The position numbers and the translations under genes are program-made. 38,853 nt of DNA from a virus (lineage: Duplodnaviria; Heunggongvirae; Uroviricota; Caudoviricetes): IMG/VR virus record IMGVR_UViG_2563366820_000006, positions 1-38,853 of that record. One strand, given 5' to 3'. Below the pieces are notes generated by a model, which ran no database searches, had not been told where the DNA came from, and saw only the letters and a program-made list of their open reading frames with translations. Shown here piece by piece: positions 3,192 to 38,853 of this stretch (its first letter is position 1; the number at the start of each line of letters is the position of its first letter).

Positions 3192-3746
3192 TTATTTATC
3201 TCCTGCCGGAAACCTCTGATACAAAGTCGATACGCCAACATCATAGATAATCGCAACTTTCTGGCGCGGAACTCCTGATGCAATTAATCGTCCGGCTTGT
3301 GCCCATTGTTCTGGTGTAAGTTTGGGACGACGTCCACCAATTCGTCCCTGTGCGCGAGCAGCTTCCAGTCCAGCTTTTGTTCGTTCAACAATCAGTTCTC
3401 GTTCCATTTCAGCCAGGGCCCCCATCACATGAAAGAAAAAGCGCCCCATTGGGGTACTGGTATCAATTGAATCCGTCAGACTACGAAAGTTGATGCCTCG
3501 TTCGCGCAACTCCTCCACCAGCACGACAAGATGCCGCATACTGCGCCCCAGCCGGTCCAGTTTCCAGACCACCAGCGTGTCACCTGCCGATAATGTCCTG
3601 AGCAGTTTTTTCAGTCCCGGCCTTTCGGACTTTGTACCGCTTATCTTGTCTTCAAAAATCAGCTCGCATCCTGCACAGTTCAGCGCATTACGTTGTAGAT
3701 CTGTGTTCTGGTCATTTGTTGATACGCGTACATAGCCAATAAGCAT
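3192..3746 (-). CDS. Site-specific DNA invertase, serine recombinase (Hin/Gin/Cin/Pin family)
   Basis: 184 aa starting MLIGYVRVSTNDQ (catalytic Ser region), resolvase core and C-terminal HTH; GGGGGA Shine-Dalgarno before the ATG at 3746; adjacent to tail-fibre cassettes. Confidence 0.92.
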   Translation of the reverse strand: MLIGYVRVSTNDQNTDLQRNALNCAGCELIFEDKISGTKSERPGLKKLLRTLSAGDTLVVWKLDRLGRSMRHLVVLVEELRERGINFRSLTDSIDTSTPMGRFFFHVMGALAEMERELIVERTKAGLEAARAQGRIGGRRPKLTPEQWAQAGRLIASGVPRQKVAIIYDVGVSTLYQRFPAGDK

Positions 3747-3789
3747 GGTAGATCCCCCTGACAAAAGCAGGAATGATGCCATTTGCTCG

Positions 3790-17956: not shown

Positions 17957-19162
17957 TTACGCCACTGCAATCTTCAACAGTTTGATGGCCTGCGAATCGA
18001 CCAGCATGCCGCCGGTGCGTTTGGTGGTATAAAAACCGACAAACGGTTTATTGGTGTACGGGTCACGCAGAATGCGGGTGCCGATACGGTCAACGATGGT
18101 GTAACCCCGTTTGAAGTTACCAAATGCAATGGCTTTCGCATCAGCGGCGATATCCGGCATCTGTTCGTTTTCAGCGATACCGTAACCCGCCAGAGAGGAC
18201 GGCTGCCCCAGTTCCAGCCCCGGACGCCACAGATAGTTACCCTCGGTGTCTTTCAGCAGACGGATGGCAAACAGGCTGTTGTTGTTCATCATGAACTTCG
18301 CGCCAGTGCGGTGTGCCTTTCGCAGCGTGTAAATCAGTTTGATAATGGCGTCTGCGGTCACCGCAGTCGCGTCGCCGGATACAATATGCTGAAGTTTGCC
18401 GAACGCCCGGACCTTATCGGTTTCATCCGTGGATTCATACGCCAGGAACCCTTTCGGCTTCTTGGTACCATCGCCGGTGGTAAAGGCAATTTCTTCCTGT
18501 TCGGCAAATTCGGTTGCCAGCTCGCTGTTGATCCAGGCCTCCACGTTGAAAAAGGCATCATCCAGCATTTTCTGGGTGGCCTGCGGGTTACCGTAGATTT
18601 CCCCCATGAAAGGTTCAATCAGCCCCAGTTTTGAGGTGGCAGTCTGGGAGCGCGCGTCAGTCTCGCCAACCCATCCGGAAGCCGTGCCGCCCAGATTCAC
18701 CAGTTTTTTGTAGTCGGAACCACCAACGGTGATCACCGTGGCTTCCTGACGCATCACCACTTCATCTTTCAGCAGGTTAAGAATGTTGCGATCCAGTTCT
18801 TCCGGCACGGCGTAGCCACCGTCTTCATCGGTGCCCACCTGCAATGCCTTACGCTCCAGATCGCGCAGACCGTCTTCACGGCCTTTACGCAGGAAGCCCA
18901 CAAACGCCTCTTTATGCTCGGTGGCCAGTTTATTTTGCGCACCACCTGCCGGACGTTTCAGCTCAAGCAGCTCTTTTTCAAGATCGCTTTTGAGGTTTTC
19001 CAGCTCGCTGAGTTTCCCGTTCAGGGTTTCCACCTGCCCGGCAAGTTTGCCTTTTTCCTGCTCAATCGCATCCACGCGCTTGTCGTTCTTTGCTTTGAAG
19101 TCGTCAAACTTCTGCTGCAGCTCCTGCGCGACCTGTTCGACATCTTTAATATCAACCGCCAT
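17957..19162 (-). CDS. Major capsid protein, HK97 fold with N-terminal delta (scaffold) domain
   Basis: 401 aa; coiled-coil-like N-terminal about 100 aa followed by an HK97-type capsid region; follows the protease gene. Confidence 0.9.
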   Translation of the reverse strand: MAVDIKDVEQVAQELQQKFDDFKAKNDKRVDAIEQEKGKLAGQVETLNGKLSELENLKSDLEKELLELKRPAGGAQNKLATEHKEAFVGFLRKGREDGLRDLERKALQVGTDEDGGYAVPEELDRNILNLLKDEVVMRQEATVITVGGSDYKKLVNLGGTASGWVGETDARSQTATSKLGLIEPFMGEIYGNPQATQKMLDDAFFNVEAWINSELATEFAEQEEIAFTTGDGTKKPKGFLAYESTDETDKVRAFGKLQHIVSGDATAVTADAIIKLIYTLRKAHRTGAKFMMNNNSLFAIRLLKDTEGNYLWRPGLELGQPSSLAGYGIAENEQMPDIAADAKAIAFGNFKRGYTIVDRIGTRILRDPYTNKPFVGFYTTKRTGGMLVDSQAIKLLKIAVA

Positions 19163-24239: not shown

Positions 24240-24516
24240 CCGCAACAGCCACTTTGATATCTTCCTGGGTTCTCTGTGACTCCAGTGCGATCTGCTGTTT
24301 TGCATGCTGGTTAGCCTCCAGAACTGTATTTACGATTTGTATTGATTGCAGGATGTTACGGGTAATAGCTGTTGCTGATTCAGCATTTCGTACAGCCTCA
24401 TCAGCACGCTCCTTTTCGTGCTGATATTTGCTGTAGTAATGCCCGGCAGACCAGATGAAGGAACCAATGACGGTAACAAAGAAAGCAACAATAACCAGCT
24501 TATATCTCAGCTTCAT
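24124..24516 (-). CDS. i-spanin (Rz-like)
   Basis: 130 aa; N-terminal transmembrane helix then coiled-coil-like periplasmic domain; follows the endolysin. Confidence 0.7.
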   Translation of the reverse strand: MKLRYKLVIVAFFVTVIGSFIWSAGHYYSKYQHEKERADEAVRNAESATAITRNILQSIQIVNTVLEANQHAKQQIALESQRTQEDIKVAVADDDCASRPVPAAAADRLRKYANSLRAYSGGTVASKPDY

Positions 24517-24976
24517 TTACTACCCCACCAGCTTCTTTAAATCGGGCAATCAGGTCACCGATTTTATGTTCATACTGACCGTAACCTGCACCAGGTAACG
24601 ACGCCCAGATATTGCTGCAACGGTCGATTGCCTGACGAATATTGCCGCGGTCAATCATCGGTAAAGCGCCACGCTCTTTAATCTGCTGCAGAGCTACAGC
24701 GTCCTGGCTTTTCGGAGAGAAGTCTCTCAGGCCAAGCTGCTTGCGGTAGGCATCCCACCAACGGGAAAGAAGCTGGTAACGTCCAGCTGCGGTTGATTTA
24801 AGTTGCGGGTTTAGCATGACAAGTTTGCGAGGGTGATCGGAGTAATCAGTGAACAGTTCACCACCAACAATAACATCATAACCGTGGTTACGTGTCGGTT
24901 GTCGCCCGTTATCCGTTCCTTCTGACCATGCCACCATATCGAGGAAAGCTTTACGCTGGGAATTTAGTACCTGCAT
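24500..24976 (-). CDS. Endolysin, lambda R-type lytic transglycosylase
   Basis: 158 aa near-colinear with lambda R (NSQRKAFLDMVAWSEGTDNGRQPTRNHGYDVIVGGELFTDYSDHPRK..). Confidence 0.92.
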   Translation of the reverse strand: MQVLNSQRKAFLDMVAWSEGTDNGRQPTRNHGYDVIVGGELFTDYSDHPRKLVMLNPQLKSTAAGRYQLLSRWWDAYRKQLGLRDFSPKSQDAVALQQIKERGALPMIDRGNIRQAIDRCSNIWASLPGAGYGQYEHKIGDLIARFKEAGGVVNEAEI

Positions 24977-24979
24977 AAA

Positions 24980-25306
24980 TTACTCCTTAGAGCCACCAAA
25001 CTTATTACCGATTACTCTCATTGCAGCCCCACGAATAGCATCGACACCGATCAACCCAACGCCACCACCAATGGCAACAGAAAGCGATTTAGGCCATCCG
25101 ACATACTCAAGAGCGGATGCAAAAGTCAGCGTCAGAGCACCACAGAGTAGAATTTCGAGTGTTTTTCGCTTCCAGCCACCACCACCGCCAAAATAGGCAA
25201 TGCGCAAACCAGCCATAACAATCGACATAATCACTGCGCCCAGCGGTGTGTCTCCACGCCACCAGCTCTGGACCAACTCCAGCCAGGTATTTGGGTTATG
25301 AGGCAT
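24980..25306 (-). CDS. Holin
   Basis: 108 aa with transmembrane segments and a charged C-terminus; immediately upstream of the endolysin; GAGGTGAGAG Shine-Dalgarno. Confidence 0.75.
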   Translation of the reverse strand: MPHNPNTWLELVQSWWRGDTPLGAVIMSIVMAGLRIAYFGGGGGWKRKTLEILLCGALTLTFASALEYVGWPKSLSVAIGGGVGLIGVDAIRGAAMRVIGNKFGGSKE

Positions 25307-25448: not shown

Positions 25449-25480
25449 AGAAACGACAAAAACCCGCTCGACGGCGGGTT
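25449..25480 (-). terminator. tR'-like intrinsic terminator upstream of the lysis genes
   Basis: Minus strand: CCCGC-cgtcga-GCGGG hairpin followed by TTTTTGTCGTTT; lies between the AT-rich putative late promoter region and the holin. Confidence 0.45.
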
Positions 25481-25761
25481 TAAGCTGTGTGGCGAAGTAA
25501 CCACTCTTAACACAATACAATTATTTTTGCGTACGCGTTAGCAATTTTATTAAATTATATGGAGTAGTTATACAATATACGTAAATCGATGCTTGCAAAT
25601 AGTTTACTCACATTACCATTAACAATTAACATCAATAACCAAAAACCACAACAAATAGTGATCAACATCACAACAAACGCATCTAAAAGCCTTTTGTGCA
25701 ATACAAATTTGAAACATATGGTTAATATACATTATCTAAAAAATATTGGTATATTTTAACA

Positions 25762-26778
25762 ATGTACAATTTGGATGTATCAAAAAAAGAAATCGGTAGA
25801 GTCGGTGATCGGCTCGCATCATTAGCAGAGAGTAATCAAACCCTCCCAGAGAGCGATCTTAATATTTTGCACTCGTGGAGAATGCTACATCTATATCCTT
25901 TAACTAAGCTCACTGAATATTTAACTAGAGAAGCAAATTCAATAAATCAAAATTGTTTAATATCATCAAGAATTAAACGACTCCCATCTATAATATCAAA
26001 ACTTCAACGTTTTGAAGATATGAAGCTAAACAAAATGCAGGATTTGGGGGGGTGTAGAGCTATACTTAGCAATCTTGATGAAGTATATAATACATATGAT
26101 AATATTAAAAAATTAAAATTTAAGCATCAAATAGTCAGAACAGATGATTACATTAAACAAGTAAAAGACTCTGGATATAGAAGTTTACATTTAGTTTATT
26201 CTTTTCAGAATGAGAAGCATGTTAATTTAAATGGGTTAAAAATCGAAATTCAACTCAGAACAGCTATACAACACAGTTGGGCTACTGCGGTTGAAATGGT
26301 TGGCCTTTTTAGGAAAGAATCTCTAAAATCTAGTTTTGGAGATCCTGATTGGTTACGTTTCTTTGAGCTAGTGTCAGAGTTATTTTATGGCATAGAATCA
26401 GGGAAATCCGTTGGTCATTATATGAAAACATCCAGTGACCTAAAAATATTAACAGAAAAACTCAACGTATTCACAATACTTGAAGCCTACAACAAAGTAG
26501 CAAGCCACATTGATTCCTCTGATACATACACCTCGGGTTTTTGCGTTATAATAGTCGATACAGAAAAGCGCAAAATGAATATAAAAAGTTTTCCTGTCCA
26601 TAGCCATAAAGCAGCATCTGATTTTTATATAAAAGAAGAAAAAAATTGTGAAGGGATAAAAGGATATGAGGTAGCCATGGTATCAGTTGATGATATATCA
26701 AATTTAAAAAATGCGTACCCTGCATTCTTCCTAGACACAAAAACATTCTTAAATAACCTGAGTAGATTTATTTTCTAA
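25762..26778 (+). CDS. RelA/SpoT-homologue (RSH) synthetase-domain protein; CapRel-like fused toxSAS toxin-antitoxin candidate
   Basis: 338 aa with the ordered RelA/SpoT synthetase motifs SRIKRLPSIISKL, DLGGCRAIL, GYRSLHLVY and EIQLRTAIQHSWA; about 150 aa C-terminal extension; no adjacent small ORF; AT-rich; opposite strand to the flanking Q and lysis genes. Confidence 0.8.
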   Translation: MYNLDVSKKEIGRVGDRLASLAESNQTLPESDLNILHSWRMLHLYPLTKLTEYLTREANSINQNCLISSRIKRLPSIISKLQRFEDMKLNKMQDLGGCRAILSNLDEVYNTYDNIKKLKFKHQIVRTDDYIKQVKDSGYRSLHLVYSFQNEKHVNLNGLKIEIQLRTAIQHSWATAVEMVGLFRKESLKSSFGDPDWLRFFELVSELFYGIESGKSVGHYMKTSSDLKILTEKLNVFTILEAYNKVASHIDSSDTYTSGFCVIIVDTEKRKMNIKSFPVHSHKAASDFYIKEEKNCEGIKGYEVAMVSVDDISNLKNAYPAFFLDTKTFLNNLSRFIF

Positions 26779-26787
26779 ATCACTATA

Positions 26788-26819
26788 AATGGTAAGGTAA
26801 GTTACTCCCCTTACCATTT
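26788..26819. terminator. Strong hairpin between the convergent RSH and Q genes (possible bidirectional terminator)
   Basis: 11-bp perfect stem AAATGGTAAGG / CCTTACCATTT with about 11-nt loop. Confidence 0.45.
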
Positions 26820-26833
26820 AAACAATGTAACTT

Positions 26834-27187
26834 TCACACTGCGTGAATTATTGATAAAACACCCTCAACAAATCCCATTGCAGTTTGCAGTTCCTTCCTA
26901 ATTGTGCCATCTGAACATTTCCGCTTCCTTGCGATTGTACGGAGTGAAATACCGATAACAAAGTGAGCGATGATCAGCTCATACTCTTCTGGTTTATATT
27001 TACGCAACCGAGCCACACAACTGTCTATCATAATGCCTTCGTCATCATCACACTGAATCCGGGACTTTTTGCCATGAGGTAAAAGCCCCTTGAAGCCAGC
27101 GGCTACCGGTTGCCAATCCACACCACTGTTCTCTGCCGCAGCCCACGCTCCCCAACGGTCTAATACTTCATACATATCACGCATCAA
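26834..27187 (-). CDS. Late-gene antiterminator Q (QuuD/YbcQ-like)
   Basis: 117 aa; MRDMYEVLDRWGAWAA .. AAGFKGL .. CDDDEGIMID .. ARLRKYKPEE closely follows the DLP12 QuuD pattern. Confidence 0.8.
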   Translation of the reverse strand: MMRDMYEVLDRWGAWAAAENSGVDWQPVAAGFKGLLPHGKKSRIQCDDDEGIMIDSCVARLRKYKPEEYELIIAHFVIGISLRTIARKRKCSDGTIRKELQTAMGFVEGVLSIIHAV

Positions 27188-35727: not shown

Positions 35728-35934
35728 ATGCTGAACCTCGATTGTGTTCCTATCTCAACTTATTGCAAAGAAACTGGCGAAACTCCTGAAGCAATAAACA
35801 AACGTGTACAGCGCGGTGTTTGGCGTGAAGGTGTTCAGGTTTTAAAGGTTGAAGGCGTTAAGGAGAGGTGGATTGATCTTAGTGAGGTTGCAAAATGGGC
35901 CAGACAAAACTGCTCAAACTACCGCGCGGCGTAA
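35728..35934 (+). CDS. Excisionase-like DNA-binding protein (Xis)
   Basis: 68 aa from the ATG with GGAG Shine-Dalgarno; basic winged-helix-like sequence with conserved Trp residues; immediately upstream of and overlapping int. Confidence 0.6.
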   Translation: MLNLDCVPISTYCKETGETPEAINKRVQRGVWREGVQVLKVEGVKERWIDLSEVAKWARQNCSNYRAA

Positions 35935-37061
35935 CAATCAGGAAACACCGCCAGGGCGAAACGATCAATATAACTTTCACCTACAAAGGCGTTAAATGTC
36001 GTGAGCCTCTTTCCAATCTGGAAGTAACACCAAAGAACATTAAATACGCCGAGCGCACACTCGGCGAAATTCATAATAAGATCGAAAGGGGAACATTCAT
36101 TTATGCGGAATATTTTCCCCGTTCTGCTCGTTTGAAAATTTTTGGTAATGCTGCTGCAGGCAAAACGGTAAAAATGTACCTGGACGAATACCTTGAAATC
36201 TGCGAAACGAGAAAACTTTCACCATCTACGATTGGTGGTTATAAAAAATGCCGTAGTGCGTTAGCCTCACTCCACATTTGCCCTGCAAGTGAATTAACAC
36301 CAGCAATCCTGAAAGCGTGGATTCAAAGCCAGAAAACGACCTTAAAAACAATTCGCAACCAGTTATCTTTCCTGCGGTCAGCACTTGATGAAGCCGTAAC
36401 CGATGGGGTACTTCAAATTAACCCCGTATCGTTGGTAACTGCTTCGCGCTACCAAAGTGATAAGTCAGAAGCAGAAAGCAGCTATGTGGTTGATCCGCTA
36501 TCACCAGCAGAAGTTGATGCATTACTAGCAGCAGCCGGAAACAAACAATGGGAAAATCTGTTCCGGTTCGCCATACATACAGGCCTGCGTAGTTCTGAAT
36601 TATGTGCCCTACGATGGCATGATATCGACTTTGTTGGAAAAACAGCCCATGTTCAGAGCGCAAGTGTTGTCGGAGTTATCAAAGGAACAAAGACAAAAGC
36701 CGGTACCCGTAAAGTTGAACTGACTGAAGAAGCAATGTTGGCGTTGATAAACCAGAAGCCATTTACATTCATGAAGGATGCTACTGTCTTTGAAGATCCA
36801 AAGACCAATAAACCCTGGGCAAGTGCTGATGCAATTAGGAAAAAAGCATGGGTGCCAACATTGCGAAAAGCAGGTATTCGTTACAGAAACCCATATCAAA
36901 CCAGGCATACATTCGCCACCAGACATATCAGCCGGGGAGCAAACCTGTTTTGGCTTGCAGCTCAAATGGGGCATAAAGGGCCTGAGATGCTTTTCAGGCA
37001 CTATGGCTCATATCTGAAGGAATATGATGGACAAACAAGCTTGAAGAAGATAACAATATAA
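35895..37061 (+). CDS. Tyrosine integrase (phage integrase family)
   Basis: 388 aa; N-terminal arm-binding-type domain; C-terminal catalytic region with conserved R .. H-x-x-R .. Y pattern (..TRHTFATRH .. LFRHYGSY). Confidence 0.92.
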   Translation: MGQTKLLKLPRGVTIRKHRQGETINITFTYKGVKCREPLSNLEVTPKNIKYAERTLGEIHNKIERGTFIYAEYFPRSARLKIFGNAAAGKTVKMYLDEYLEICETRKLSPSTIGGYKKCRSALASLHICPASELTPAILKAWIQSQKTTLKTIRNQLSFLRSALDEAVTDGVLQINPVSLVTASRYQSDKSEAESSYVVDPLSPAEVDALLAAAGNKQWENLFRFAIHTGLRSSELCALRWHDIDFVGKTAHVQSASVVGVIKGTKTKAGTRKVELTEEAMLALINQKPFTFMKDATVFEDPKTNKPWASADAIRKKAWVPTLRKAGIRYRNPYQTRHTFATRHISRGANLFWLAAQMGHKGPEMLFRHYGSYLKEYDGQTSLKKITI

Positions 37062-37079
37062 TCCAAGCATGAAACTATT

Positions 37080-37103
37080 GGCCACAATTTGTGGCCATTT
37101 TAC
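37080..37103 (+). terminator. Hairpin / terminator-like element after int
   Basis: Perfect palindrome GGCCACAA-t-TTGTGGCC followed by ATTTTAC. Confidence 0.45.
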
Positions 37104-37119
37104 GGAGCAAGATAGAAAC

Positions 37120-38853
37120 ATGGCAAATCAAATTACCAAACTAAAAAATATAAATGTTGTGAAGTTTCGCGGACTGAAAAATATAAACATCGAGTTTGGT
37201 TCTCGCCTAACTGTTATTTGTGGTAAAAATGGCACATCTAAATCCACAATTCTTGGCATTATCGCCCAAATATTTAGCTTTACAAAGGACTTTACCAAAA
37301 ACCCTGAGACTGATTTAACACAATATAAAACATTAACAAATGGCAGCTTCAAGTCAGCTTTCAGCGAACATTTTAGGCTTTCAGAACAATTTGATGTTCC
37401 TGGTTCAATGGACGTCAAAATTAGTGTCTATGATGGTGCATCGAACAAACATCTTGAAAAACTAACATTAGGTTTATACAGCTACAGTGACAGAGATAAA
37501 TCAAGGCCTGTAGTCAGGGGAAATGATTCAATACCGGAAAAAAACCAAAGTAGAAACGTTACTCATCCTGTTATTTTTTTAAGCTTAGCACGACTTCTTC
37601 CTATTACATTAAGGACTGATTACTCAACACGGGATGTTCAGTACATCAATGAAAATTCTGATGAAATCAGAATGATGAGTAACCAACTCTTACTAAAAAA
37701 CAATGGAAGCTCAGTAACAGCAACAAAAGGTACTATCGATTCAATGGTTGTCCATGGTGACAATTATGATCACCAATCAGTATCTGTTGGTGAAGATAAT
37801 GTTGGACAATTAATCCAAGCAATTTTTTCATTTAAAAGATTGAAGGAAACTTATTCTGATTATCATGGCGGAATATTGTTAATTGATGAAGCCGATGCAG
37901 GTCTTTTCCCTGCTGCACAGTTAGAGCTAATTAATATTCTAACTAAAGCAGCAAAACAATACGATCTGCAAATAATCATGACCTCGCACTCTCCATTAAT
38001 AATAGAGGATATCTATAATCGTTCAAAACAAGATAGTGATAGCTTTAAAACAATATATCTTACAGACACATATGGAGATATTAAAACAAAGAATAATCTT
38101 TCATGGACAGATATCCACGCTGATTTACATGTTGAAACTGTAAAAATTAATGATGACATTTGTCTTCCAAAGGCAAATGTATATTTTGAAGACAAAGAAG
38201 GTTTCGACTTTTTCAAACAATTGATAACAGATCGTAAAATAAATAAAATATTAAATCCATTAGGGAATATAAATATTAGCTGCTCTGCCATGCTTGACTT
38301 AATGGCAAGAAAAATACCAGAATTTACAGCTAAAAGCTTGATCGTCTTAGACGGTGATGTTGTTCACGACAATAGTGCTAATGCAAAAAAAGCCAAAAAA
38401 GAAAAAAACTTATGTTTGCTTCCAAGCACCTTACCTCCAGACCAAATGATTTTTGAGTTTTTATATAATTTACCACCTGATGATGCATATTGGGAAAATA
38501 AAAATAAATTTACAAAAGCTGTTTTTATGAAAACAGCTAAAGACATAATTGCAACGCTAAAGATTGGTAACGCTCCGATTGATTTAAAAATCCTTATAGA
38601 TAATTATAAAAAAGTTAACAAAAACCATGGCGGGATAGTTAGAAAACTGTTTAAAGATTTTGCACATACGACTCAATTTCAGGCCCAAGTAAAAGGGCGA
38701 GTTAAAGATAACCCATATCGATATTGGGTCGAGAAAAATCCTGTGCAATCGGATAGCTTCAAGAATGAACTAATAAAGAGTCTTAAAGTTATTATGACAA
38801 GTGGACATGGTGTCGATTCTGCTACCATCTCATCATATCTGTCAGATAACTAA
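37120..38853 (+). CDS. ABC-type ATPase fused to a C-terminal TOPRIM-like domain (OLD-family-like; P2 Old / PARIS-like defence candidate)
   Basis: Start taken at MANQITKLKNINVVKF (tracked ORF starts at 37069). Walker A GKNGTSKST; Walker B ILLIDEADAGL; H-loop-like MTSHSP; C-terminal acidic motifs YFEDKEG and LIVLDGD about 45 aa apart. AT-rich; ends at the window edge. Confidence 0.75.
   Translation: MANQITKLKNINVVKFRGLKNINIEFGSRLTVICGKNGTSKSTILGIIAQIFSFTKDFTKNPETDLTQYKTLTNGSFKSAFSEHFRLSEQFDVPGSMDVKISVYDGASNKHLEKLTLGLYSYSDRDKSRPVVRGNDSIPEKNQSRNVTHPVIFLSLARLLPITLRTDYSTRDVQYINENSDEIRMMSNQLLLKNNGSSVTATKGTIDSMVVHGDNYDHQSVSVGEDNVGQLIQAIFSFKRLKETYSDYHGGILLIDEADAGLFPAAQLELINILTKAAKQYDLQIIMTSHSPLIIEDIYNRSKQDSDSFKTIYLTDTYGDIKTKNNLSWTDIHADLHVETVKINDDICLPKANVYFEDKEGFDFFKQLITDRKINKILNPLGNINISCSAMLDLMARKIPEFTAKSLIVLDGDVVHDNSANAKKAKKEKNLCLLPSTLPPDQMIFEFLYNLPPDDAYWENKNKFTKAVFMKTAKDIIATLKIGNAPIDLKILIDNYKKVNKNHGGIVRKLFKDFAHTTQFQAQVKGRVKDNPYRYWVEKNPVQSDSFKNELIKSLKVIMTSGHGVDSATISSYLSDN

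Follow-up and report, generated by a model that had tools for sequence, protein, structure and literature searches.

What does a solitary RelA/SpoT-type gene encode when it lies beside the antiterminator gene Q of a lambdoid-type prophage, and why is it found there? The question is raised by a 38,853-nucleotide stretch of viral DNA (IMG/VR record IMGVR_UViG_2563366820_000006, positions 1 to 38,853; hereafter the window), in which an open reading frame (ORF) with an ATG start at 25762..26778 on the + strand encodes a protein of 338 amino acids. An earlier examination of the DNA without database searches (the sequence-only reading) had noted four RelA/SpoT synthetase motifs in this protein and no hydrolase domain, and had proposed a single-polypeptide toxic small alarmone synthetase (toxSAS) resembling CapRel, encoded in the slot that carries stx in Stx phages. 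As checks it had named a RelA_SpoT profile search, prediction of the C-terminal structure for comparison with CapRel, and an alignment that would reveal any loss of the catalytic Asp or Glu. Our analysis supports the identification as a fused CapRel-type toxSAS and places the gene in a slot separate from that of stx.

Identification of the protein as a member of the CapRel family

The ORF list of the window gave exactly the coordinates, strand and length that had been claimed for what we call the capRel-like gene. The only domain found in its product by a Pfam search was RelA_SpoT, which matched residues 69-175 significantly (E=6.2e-21, 75 bits against a cut-off of 27 bits); no HD/hydrolase domain was found by this search, and NCBIfam matches were likewise limited to the synthetase region. 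The four synthetase motifs lie in order at S69-L81, D94-L102, G138-Y146 and E162-A174, so that this part of the earlier description was accurate.

Among proteins of solved structure, the best relatives found with phmmer were the CapRelSJ46 entries 7ZTB and 9ERV (E=2.4e-37), which align residues 29-337 of the window protein with residues 36-370. The next-best structures, those of RelP, RelQ, Rel and RelA, gave E=7e-12 or weaker and matched over the synthetase core only. The same relationship can be seen in an AlphaFold2 (AF2) model that was built on a 115-sequence alignment (predicted local distance difference test score, pLDDT, 88.4; predicted template-modelling score, pTM, 0.85). When this model was searched with Foldseek the top match was 7ZTB, with a template-modelling (TM) score of 0.85-0.86 and a root-mean-square deviation of 3.1 Å over 351-354 aligned columns, whereas the other PDB matches covered only about 190 residues with a TMq of about 0.4 or less. 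The window protein is thus closer to CapRel than to any other RelA/SpoT homologue (RSH) or toxSAS with a solved structure.

The protein also matches a defence model, PDC-S33 of PADLOC (hidden Markov model PDLC04999), over residues 4-336 against profile positions 6-341 of 349 (E=1.9e-114). CapRelSJ46 matches the same model with its residues 35-369 (E=9.6e-82), scoring 273 bits against 381 bits for the window protein. In addition, the window protein gave a full-length match to PHROG 4773, a family with no assigned function (E=2e-115). A literature search for PDC-S33 found no paper mentioning the name; since CapRelSJ46 itself matches PDC-S33, this unnamed bin corresponds to the CapRel family, as does PHROG 4773, and the link between PDC-S33 and CapRel is made in the present analysis.

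We then mapped individual residues using a profile-guided alignment with the full CapRelSJ46 protein taken from the phage genome. The residues that coordinate adenine/ATP are R70 and R99 (SJ46 R79 and R116), the Mg-binding aspartate is D94 (D111) and the G-loop tyrosine is Y139 (Y155). The YXXY neutralisation motif is represented by Y319 and F322 (Y352 and Y355), and the intramolecular interface by S68, A305, M306, S308 and A318 (A77, V338, L339, A341 and A351). All 115 family members have R70, R99, Y139, E162 and Y319, and 114 of them have D94, so that the catalytic Asp and Glu, D94 and E162, are both retained. Each of the five interface residues is one of the two commonest in its family column, and the basic residues R40, K72/R73 and K80 are common to SJ46 and invariant or nearly so in the family. 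We conclude that four independent lines, namely sequence, structure, individual residues and the defence-model match, support the window protein as a fused CapRel-type toxSAS. The single-polypeptide defence candidate that had been proposed is therefore supported by the full-length homology, the structure, the residues and PDC-S33, together with the lack of a conserved partner gene described below.

Domain architecture, sensor and hinge

The toxSYNTH catalytic core comprises residues 63-194 (25948..26343, + strand); it holds R70, D94, R99, Y139 and E162 and is 41% identical to that of SJ46. Beyond the core there is a structured C-terminal extension of about 145 amino acids. Three 'anchor' helices within residues 195-255 (26344..26526, + strand; helices at 195-213, 220-233 and 236-252 in the AF2 model; 27% identical to SJ46) join the core to a pseudo-zinc-finger domain (pseudo-ZFD), the sensor/antitoxin domain, at residues 256-308 (26527..26685, + strand). 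The beta-beta-alpha-beta topology of the pseudo-ZFD is reproduced in the model, with strands at 260-266 and 271-277, a helix at 282-296 and a strand at 302-308, and the C-terminal part thus agrees with CapRel in the predicted structure, as does the protein as a whole (full-length TM 0.85). The hinge motif, Y319-P-A-F322 (26716..26727, + strand), lies between two C-terminal helices, where the model has a break at 319-321.

The core and the C-terminal tail are conserved in the family and residues 221-300 are variable, a conserved-core/variable-sensor profile that has also been reported for CapRel (PMC9712102). The pseudo-ZFD is the least conserved region, with 24-30% identity within the family and 16% identity to the SJ46 sensor. 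Furthermore, the window protein is without the SJ46 insertions at 94-101, 280-284 and 302-307, and the SJ46 sensor residues L280 and L307 fall in these segments. The sequence-only reading had found no Cys-rich motif in the C-terminal region and had suggested a divergent sensor. Cysteines are indeed scarce, there being only two in the C-terminal half, and the pseudo-ZFD has neither a Cys nor a His that is conserved (H280 and H282 are not kept in the Yersinia orthologue). The sensor sequence is divergent; the fold, however, is not. The CapRelSJ46 sensor is a pseudo-ZFD, by definition without cysteines (PMC9712102), and its topology is reproduced in the AF2 model, so that missing cysteines are no sign of a divergent fold.

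Position 322 of the hinge is Tyr in 103 of the 115 family members, most of which have YPNY, and Phe in the other 12, including the window protein with its YPAF. The Y355A substitution renders SJ46 constitutively toxic (PMC9712102). A change from Tyr to Phe keeps the aromatic ring, and autoinhibition is therefore probably retained in the window protein despite the substitution.

Relatives, genomic contexts and selection

An identical protein is on record in many independent Escherichia coli contigs, and in all six that we inspected it occupies the same slot between holin and Q. At the level of megablast the exact gene was absent from 5,426 complete E. coli genomes. An orthologue from Yersinia enterocolitica (86% identity) belongs to a different prophage and also abuts Q, with DNA homology spanning window positions 25656-27154. 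Q likewise follows directly after the gene in two IMG/VR contigs (L017 and L018, 82% identity), whereas in three others (L020-L022, 65% identity) the gene is in a different slot, about 1.7 kb upstream of DUF968-Q. A Serratia orthologue (61% identity) is found on a chromosomal island with HxsD, a radical-SAM gene and three tandem dCTP-deaminase (DCD)-like genes (L010, 3845-8030), and a Klebsiella orthologue (57% identity) on an integrase-bounded island with DndB-like, ParB-like/ParB-HTH and HSDR_N genes (L013, 50-7344); these two contexts are apparent defence islands. The enterobacterial branch to which the window protein belongs occurs in E. coli, Yersinia, Pectobacterium, Serratia, Klebsiella and Aeromonas. 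In the viral contigs of IMG/VR, 133 loci with relatives were located by a search with the clade alignment. Of 50,697 sequenced phages, only SJ46 and the approximately 95-kb E. coli phage vB_EcoM-673R5 had a homologue, at about 30% identity.

No partner gene is shared across the E. coli, Yersinia, Serratia and Klebsiella contexts. The sequence-only reading had stated that there is no adjacent antitoxin-sized ORF. To the letter this does not hold, as a mechanically called ORF of 56 amino acids (25589..25759, + strand) stops 3 nucleotides before the start codon of the capRel-like gene; in substance it does, because the 56-amino-acid ORF is not conserved. We rejected this ORF as a hidden antitoxin, since it is not preserved in the Yersinia locus and is uncalled in the six E. 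coli contigs. A PANGU-like or other bicistronic partner was also rejected, there being no conserved neighbour.

When compared with the Yersinia orthologue, the ratio of nonsynonymous to synonymous substitution rates (dN/dS) was 0.05 overall and 0.03-0.10 per domain where it could be estimated, with dS near saturation. We conclude that the capRel-like gene is under strong purifying selection, and that it moves among prophages and defence islands as a cassette of one gene.

In the Yersinia prophages a membrane-like protein of 205 amino acids is encoded on the other flank of the capRel-like gene (L007, 3867-4484, - strand). It gave only a weak KwaA-like PADLOC match (E=0.005) and is absent from the E. 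coli locus.

A variable cargo slot beside Q

The capRel-like gene has a GC content of 0.27-0.35 (about 31%), compared with 0.53-0.58 (about 55%) in the flanking phage genes, and it is the sole + strand gene amid a run of - strand phage genes, both of which had been pointed out from the sequence. The flanking genes had also been named correctly. On one side is Q (26834..27187, - strand; PF06530, E=1.2e-45), which is convergent with the capRel-like gene, and on the other is a lambda-family holin gene, the first late gene (24980..25306, - strand; PF05106, E=5.7e-25).

Beyond the cargo as seen from Q, the first sequence again homologous to the E. coli backbone is a conserved 18-mer, CTAACGCGTACGCAAAAA (25541..25524, - strand), which contains the direct repeat ACGC-GT-ACGC. 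This is followed by a -10-like TATTGT (25517..25512, - strand) and then by a tR'-like intrinsic terminator upstream of holin (25481..25460, - strand), which has an 8-bp stem with 5 GC pairs and then a run of T. Every locus with a related Q has exactly this 18-mer, among them those of Yersinia, E. coli D217-5, which carries an alternative cargo, and Stx2a_1447. The -10-like element reads TAT(T/C)GT across loci, and the terminator is conserved in the contigs of D217-5 (L016) and Stx2a_1447 (L098). In the published Q21 cassette, a Q-binding element with two subsites in direct repeat is followed by a -10-like pause element and then a terminator. By analogy, we infer that the 18-mer and TATTGT form a putative Q-binding element and sigma-dependent pause element. 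The window Q itself matches Q21 (6P18) only distantly (E=0.002), and assignment of the binding site by homology to Q21 was rejected because this match is too distant.

The sequence-only reading had the gene bracketed by a pR'/tR'-like region. The terminator was found; the promoter was not confidently located. A perfect TATAAT at 25559..25554 (- strand) has no credible -35 and is unlisted by the promoter scan, so pR' could not be placed there as a sigma-70 promoter. At the other end of the cargo, the 55-bp spacer between the convergent stop codons of the capRel-like gene and Q is filled by a 12-bp hairpin, and there is thus no room there for a late promoter.

The slot, which corresponds to window positions 25460-26833, holds different genes in related prophages that have the same RusA-KilA-DUF968-Q backbone. 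In E. coli D217-5 it is occupied by genes for hypothetical proteins of 87 and 246 amino acids (L016, 2407-3725), and in Stx2a_1447 by genes for hypothetical proteins of 343 and 179 amino acids (L098, 2780-4485). No informative Pfam or PADLOC match was obtained for these alternative cargos. All three cargos are on the opposite strand and converge on Q; composition was checked for those of the window and Stx2a_1447, and both are AT-rich. It can be seen from Stx2a_1447 that the slot is not the one that carries stx, as had been suggested, because there stx2 comes only after the terminator, a methylase gene and three tRNA genes, some 2.9 kb farther down the late transcript. The capRel-like gene, by contrast, lies between Q and the terminator and is read from the other strand, and Stx2a_1447 has both slots, at different positions in one prophage. 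We conclude that the capRel-like gene occupies a variable, Q-proximal cargo slot between Q and the probable loading site of Q with its terminator.

Expression signals around the gene

The AT-rich region upstream of the gene (25553..25761, + strand) is part of the cargo: the E. coli backbone can be followed only to near 25553, and homology to the Yersinia locus starts at 25656. The promoter scan reported a promoter-like site at 25726-25755 in this region, and a TG-extended, -10-like TATATT ends 6 nucleotides upstream of the ATG. No Shine-Dalgarno sequence could be recognised before the ATG of the window allele (25740-25764), which may therefore be weakly translated or leaderless. A leaderless mRNA as a feature of the whole family was rejected, because the Klebsiella and L017 orthologues (GGAG or AGGTG) and others have a normal Shine-Dalgarno sequence.

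The 12-bp hairpin between the convergent genes (26786..26820, both strands) has a minimum free energy of -14.1 kcal/mol on the + strand (z -3.3) and -19.5 on the - strand (z -3.9). A hairpin follows the stop codon in most of the orthologous loci examined, as read by eye, and that at 26786..26820 is likely to be a terminator or insulator. The capRel-like gene probably relies on its own AT-rich upstream region for expression; it is convergent with Q and forms no part of the Q-dependent late transcript.

Other features of the window

The window begins with smpB (1-483) and the ssrA transfer-messenger RNA (tmRNA; 698-1060), which adjoin a lambdoid-type prophage of about 36 kb that has an HK97-type capsid gene (17957..19162), an S24 repressor and an integrase. 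The integrase gene (35895-37061) is at the far end of the prophage, about 35 kb from ssrA, and does not adjoin it. The tmRNA was the sole match when the window was scanned against Rfam; no known RNA family corresponds to the conserved non-coding block described above.

To the right of Q are DUF968/HNH, KilA-N and RusA genes. On the left, holin is accompanied by an endolysin-sized ORF (24500..24976), which has no Pfam match and whose L016 counterpart is annotated as glycoside hydrolase family 24, and beyond these are genes for a DUF2570 protein, a probable spanin, and an HNH endonuclease.

Two further genes attracted our attention. Directly after the integrase gene, and running past the window edge, is a gene for an ABC/OLD-type ATPase (AAA_15/AAA_21; 37069-38853, + strand) that gave partial matches to the models for Septu PtuA, Gabija GajA and PARIS AriA, and this is probably a second defence gene. 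A serine recombinase/invertase (Resolvase and HTH_7; 3192-3782, - strand) is encoded close to the tail-fibre end of the prophage and may be part of a tail-fibre inversion system for host-range switching.

Comparison with known systems

CapRelSJ46, which comes from Salmonella phage SJ46 and E. coli prophages (7ZTB, 9ERV; Zhang et al. 2022, PMC9712102), has the same single-chain arrangement of toxSYNTH core, anchors, pseudo-ZFD and hinge as the window protein. It is likewise prophage-borne and encoded by a solitary gene, and its sensor is also the most variable region. The two proteins differ in length (373 versus 338 amino acids) and are 32% identical overall and 16% in the pseudo-ZFD; the hinge is YPNY in CapRelSJ46 and YPAF in the window protein, and the carrier is a P1-like phage-plasmid in one case and a lambdoid prophage, next to Q, in the other. 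For CapRelEbc, CapRelKp and CapRelEcHT we used the sequences of the synthetic genes in Supplementary Table 4 of PMC9712102. These proteins are of the same family and architecture as the window protein, but only about 32-35% identical to it, and they belong to an SJ46-like group with an 'LDG' insertion after the KLxR helix. The enterobacterial clade of 338-340 amino acids that includes the window protein is therefore outside the set of tested CapRels.

The bicistronic toxSAS pairs (FaRel, FaRel2, PhRel/Phrann gp29-gp30 and PhRel2) have the toxSYNTH fold, the G-loop Tyr and a growth-arrest output in common with CapRel. They need a separate antitoxin gene, whereas the window protein has a fused regulator and its gene has no conserved neighbour. 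PANGU type I (the GRel toxSAS Pag1B with the nucleoid-associated protein, NAP, Pag1A) again shares the toxSYNTH fold, the G-loop Tyr and the growth-arrest output but is a two-gene operon with a NAP activator; no PANGU-type NAP neighbour was present in any context examined, and the C-terminal fold of the window protein matches the CapRel pseudo-ZFD instead. The housekeeping synthetases RelP and RelQ are single-domain proteins of about 200-230 amino acids, and their structures cover only the core of the 338-residue window protein. As regards gene position, stx and other lambdoid late-operon morons resemble the capRel-like gene in being AT-rich accessory genes carried between Q and the lysis genes. 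However, stx is downstream of pR'/tR', on the late strand and Q-dependent, whereas the capRel-like gene runs the other way, between Q and the 18-mer block with its terminator.

A proposed mechanism and its alternatives

We consider it likely that the capRel-like gene encodes a fused CapRel-type toxSAS, a one-protein toxin-antitoxin that serves the lysogen as an abortive-infection sensor. Architecture, residue conservation, selection and mobility were established directly here; autoinhibition, activation, the tRNA target and protection are carried over by homology from work on CapRelSJ46 and CapRelEbc (PMC9712102, PMC11578894, PMC13423816). On this model, the C-terminal hinge (Y319/F322) would dock between R70 and R99 in the uninfected cell and block the ATP site. 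A protein of a superinfecting phage, or a phage-host complex, would bind the variable pseudo-ZFD and hold the enzyme open, and the open toxSYNTH enzyme would then move pyrophosphate from ATP onto the 3' CCA ends of tRNA, which would stop translation and abort the infection. Trigger-stimulated tRNA pyrophosphorylation has been shown directly for CapRelSJ46 (PMC9712102).

The sensor domain of CapRel sets phage specificity (PMC9712102, PMC13423816), and the triggers known so far are the capsid protein of SECphi27, Gp54 of Bas11, and Gp0.4 of T7 in complex with FtsZ (PMC9712102, PMC13423816). We expect the trigger of the window protein to differ from that of SJ46, because the two sensors are only 16% identical and the segments with L280 and L307 are missing. 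Which protein it might be is not predictable, since in addition the sensor is the most variable region and the known CapRel triggers are heterogeneous.

Several points weigh against the proposal of a CapRel-type abortive-infection sensor. The four CapRels that have been tested share no more than 30-35% identity with the window protein, and none of them is from its clade. The second Tyr of the YXXY motif is replaced by Phe, the minority state (12/115). The target, whether tRNA or a nucleotide acceptor, is not readable from sequence. Finally, expression in the lysogen may be affected by the very high AT content of the window allele and its lack of a clear Shine-Dalgarno sequence.

The question of the target bears on an alternative in which the protein is still an autoinhibited toxSAS defence protein but makes an alarmone instead of pyrophosphorylating tRNA: either (pp)pApp, with ATP depletion, as for FaRel/Tas1, or (pp)pGpp, as for the PANGU GRel effector (PMC9712102; PANGU preprint). 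The acceptor substrate does differ among toxSAS subfamilies (PMC9712102; PANGU preprint), and a catalytic core that is 41% identical to that of SJ46 leaves scope for such a difference. We nevertheless regard an alarmone product as quite unlikely, given that by far the closest homologue in both sequence and structure is CapRelSJ46, a demonstrated tRNA pyrophosphorylator, and that CapRel has been described as a translation-inhibiting toxSAS subfamily (PMC9712102). The basic residues R40, K72/R73 and K80, common to SJ46 and invariant or nearly so in the family, also favour tRNA, and the NAP partner gene that PANGU needs is absent.

The protein could also be a CapRel family member with a main role other than defence. 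Toxin-antitoxin modules on mobile elements can serve as addiction systems, and the prophage might be stabilised in this way; alternatively, a gene that adjoins the late-gene switch Q and is convergent with it might modulate host physiology or the timing of the prophage's own lytic growth. The HK97-type capsid protein of the prophage itself (17957..19162) is, moreover, in the class sensed by CapRelSJ46. On the other hand, a fused toxin-antitoxin is unable to give classical post-segregational killing through a difference in stability between two proteins, orthologues are also found outside prophages in islands beside defence-type genes, and the combination of a variable sensor with a conserved core is a signature of host-pathogen sensing. 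As the three fused CapRels tested for protection all proved phage-protective (PMC9712102), we think a mainly non-defensive role very unlikely. Even less credible, and in our view highly improbable, is that the gene was acquired horizontally and is now silenced or decaying, with no current function in the host. Very low GC is typical of H-NS-silenced DNA, and the GC content of 27-35%, the unrecognisable Shine-Dalgarno sequence of the window allele and the failure of megablast to find the gene in any of the 5,426 complete E. coli genomes would fit with this. Yet the frame is intact, every invariant family residue is kept, dN/dS against the Yersinia orthologue is 0.05, and numerous independent E. 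coli contigs encode the identical protein, each time in this slot.

Beyond the proposal of a CapRel-type sensor, a bolder combination can be envisaged, which we judge unlikely when taken as a whole. The clade of 338-340 amino acids would be a distinct CapRel lineage in which a sensor surface of unrelated appearance recognises a trigger class new to CapRel, and at the same time the interval between Q and its loading site would be an undescribed exchangeable hotspot for defence cargo in lambdoid prophages, including Stx prophages, where the cargo is always convergent and early-right read-through, being antisense to it, damps it in lytic growth. If true, such antisense damping would be a built-in means by which the prophage avoids self-triggering by its own capsid.

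Significance for the CapRel family

CapRel is a well-studied immune protein that directly binds a phage protein, and mechanistic work so far has been on SJ46-like proteins. The window protein represents a compact, strongly conserved branch in which the catalytic and autoinhibitory machinery is kept and the sensor surface is essentially different. This branch could be used as a test of the range over which the pseudo-ZFD can be retargeted, and of the effect of Tyr-to-Phe in the neutralisation motif. For annotation, the gain is that the unnamed PDC-S33 and PHROG 4773 are tied to the CapRel family, and for the mining of prophages for defence genes it is an exchangeable, opposite-strand cargo slot beside Q that is separate from the stx slot. 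The result is incremental and introduces no new principle; the known family of fused CapRels gains a divergent sensor for the discovery of triggers.

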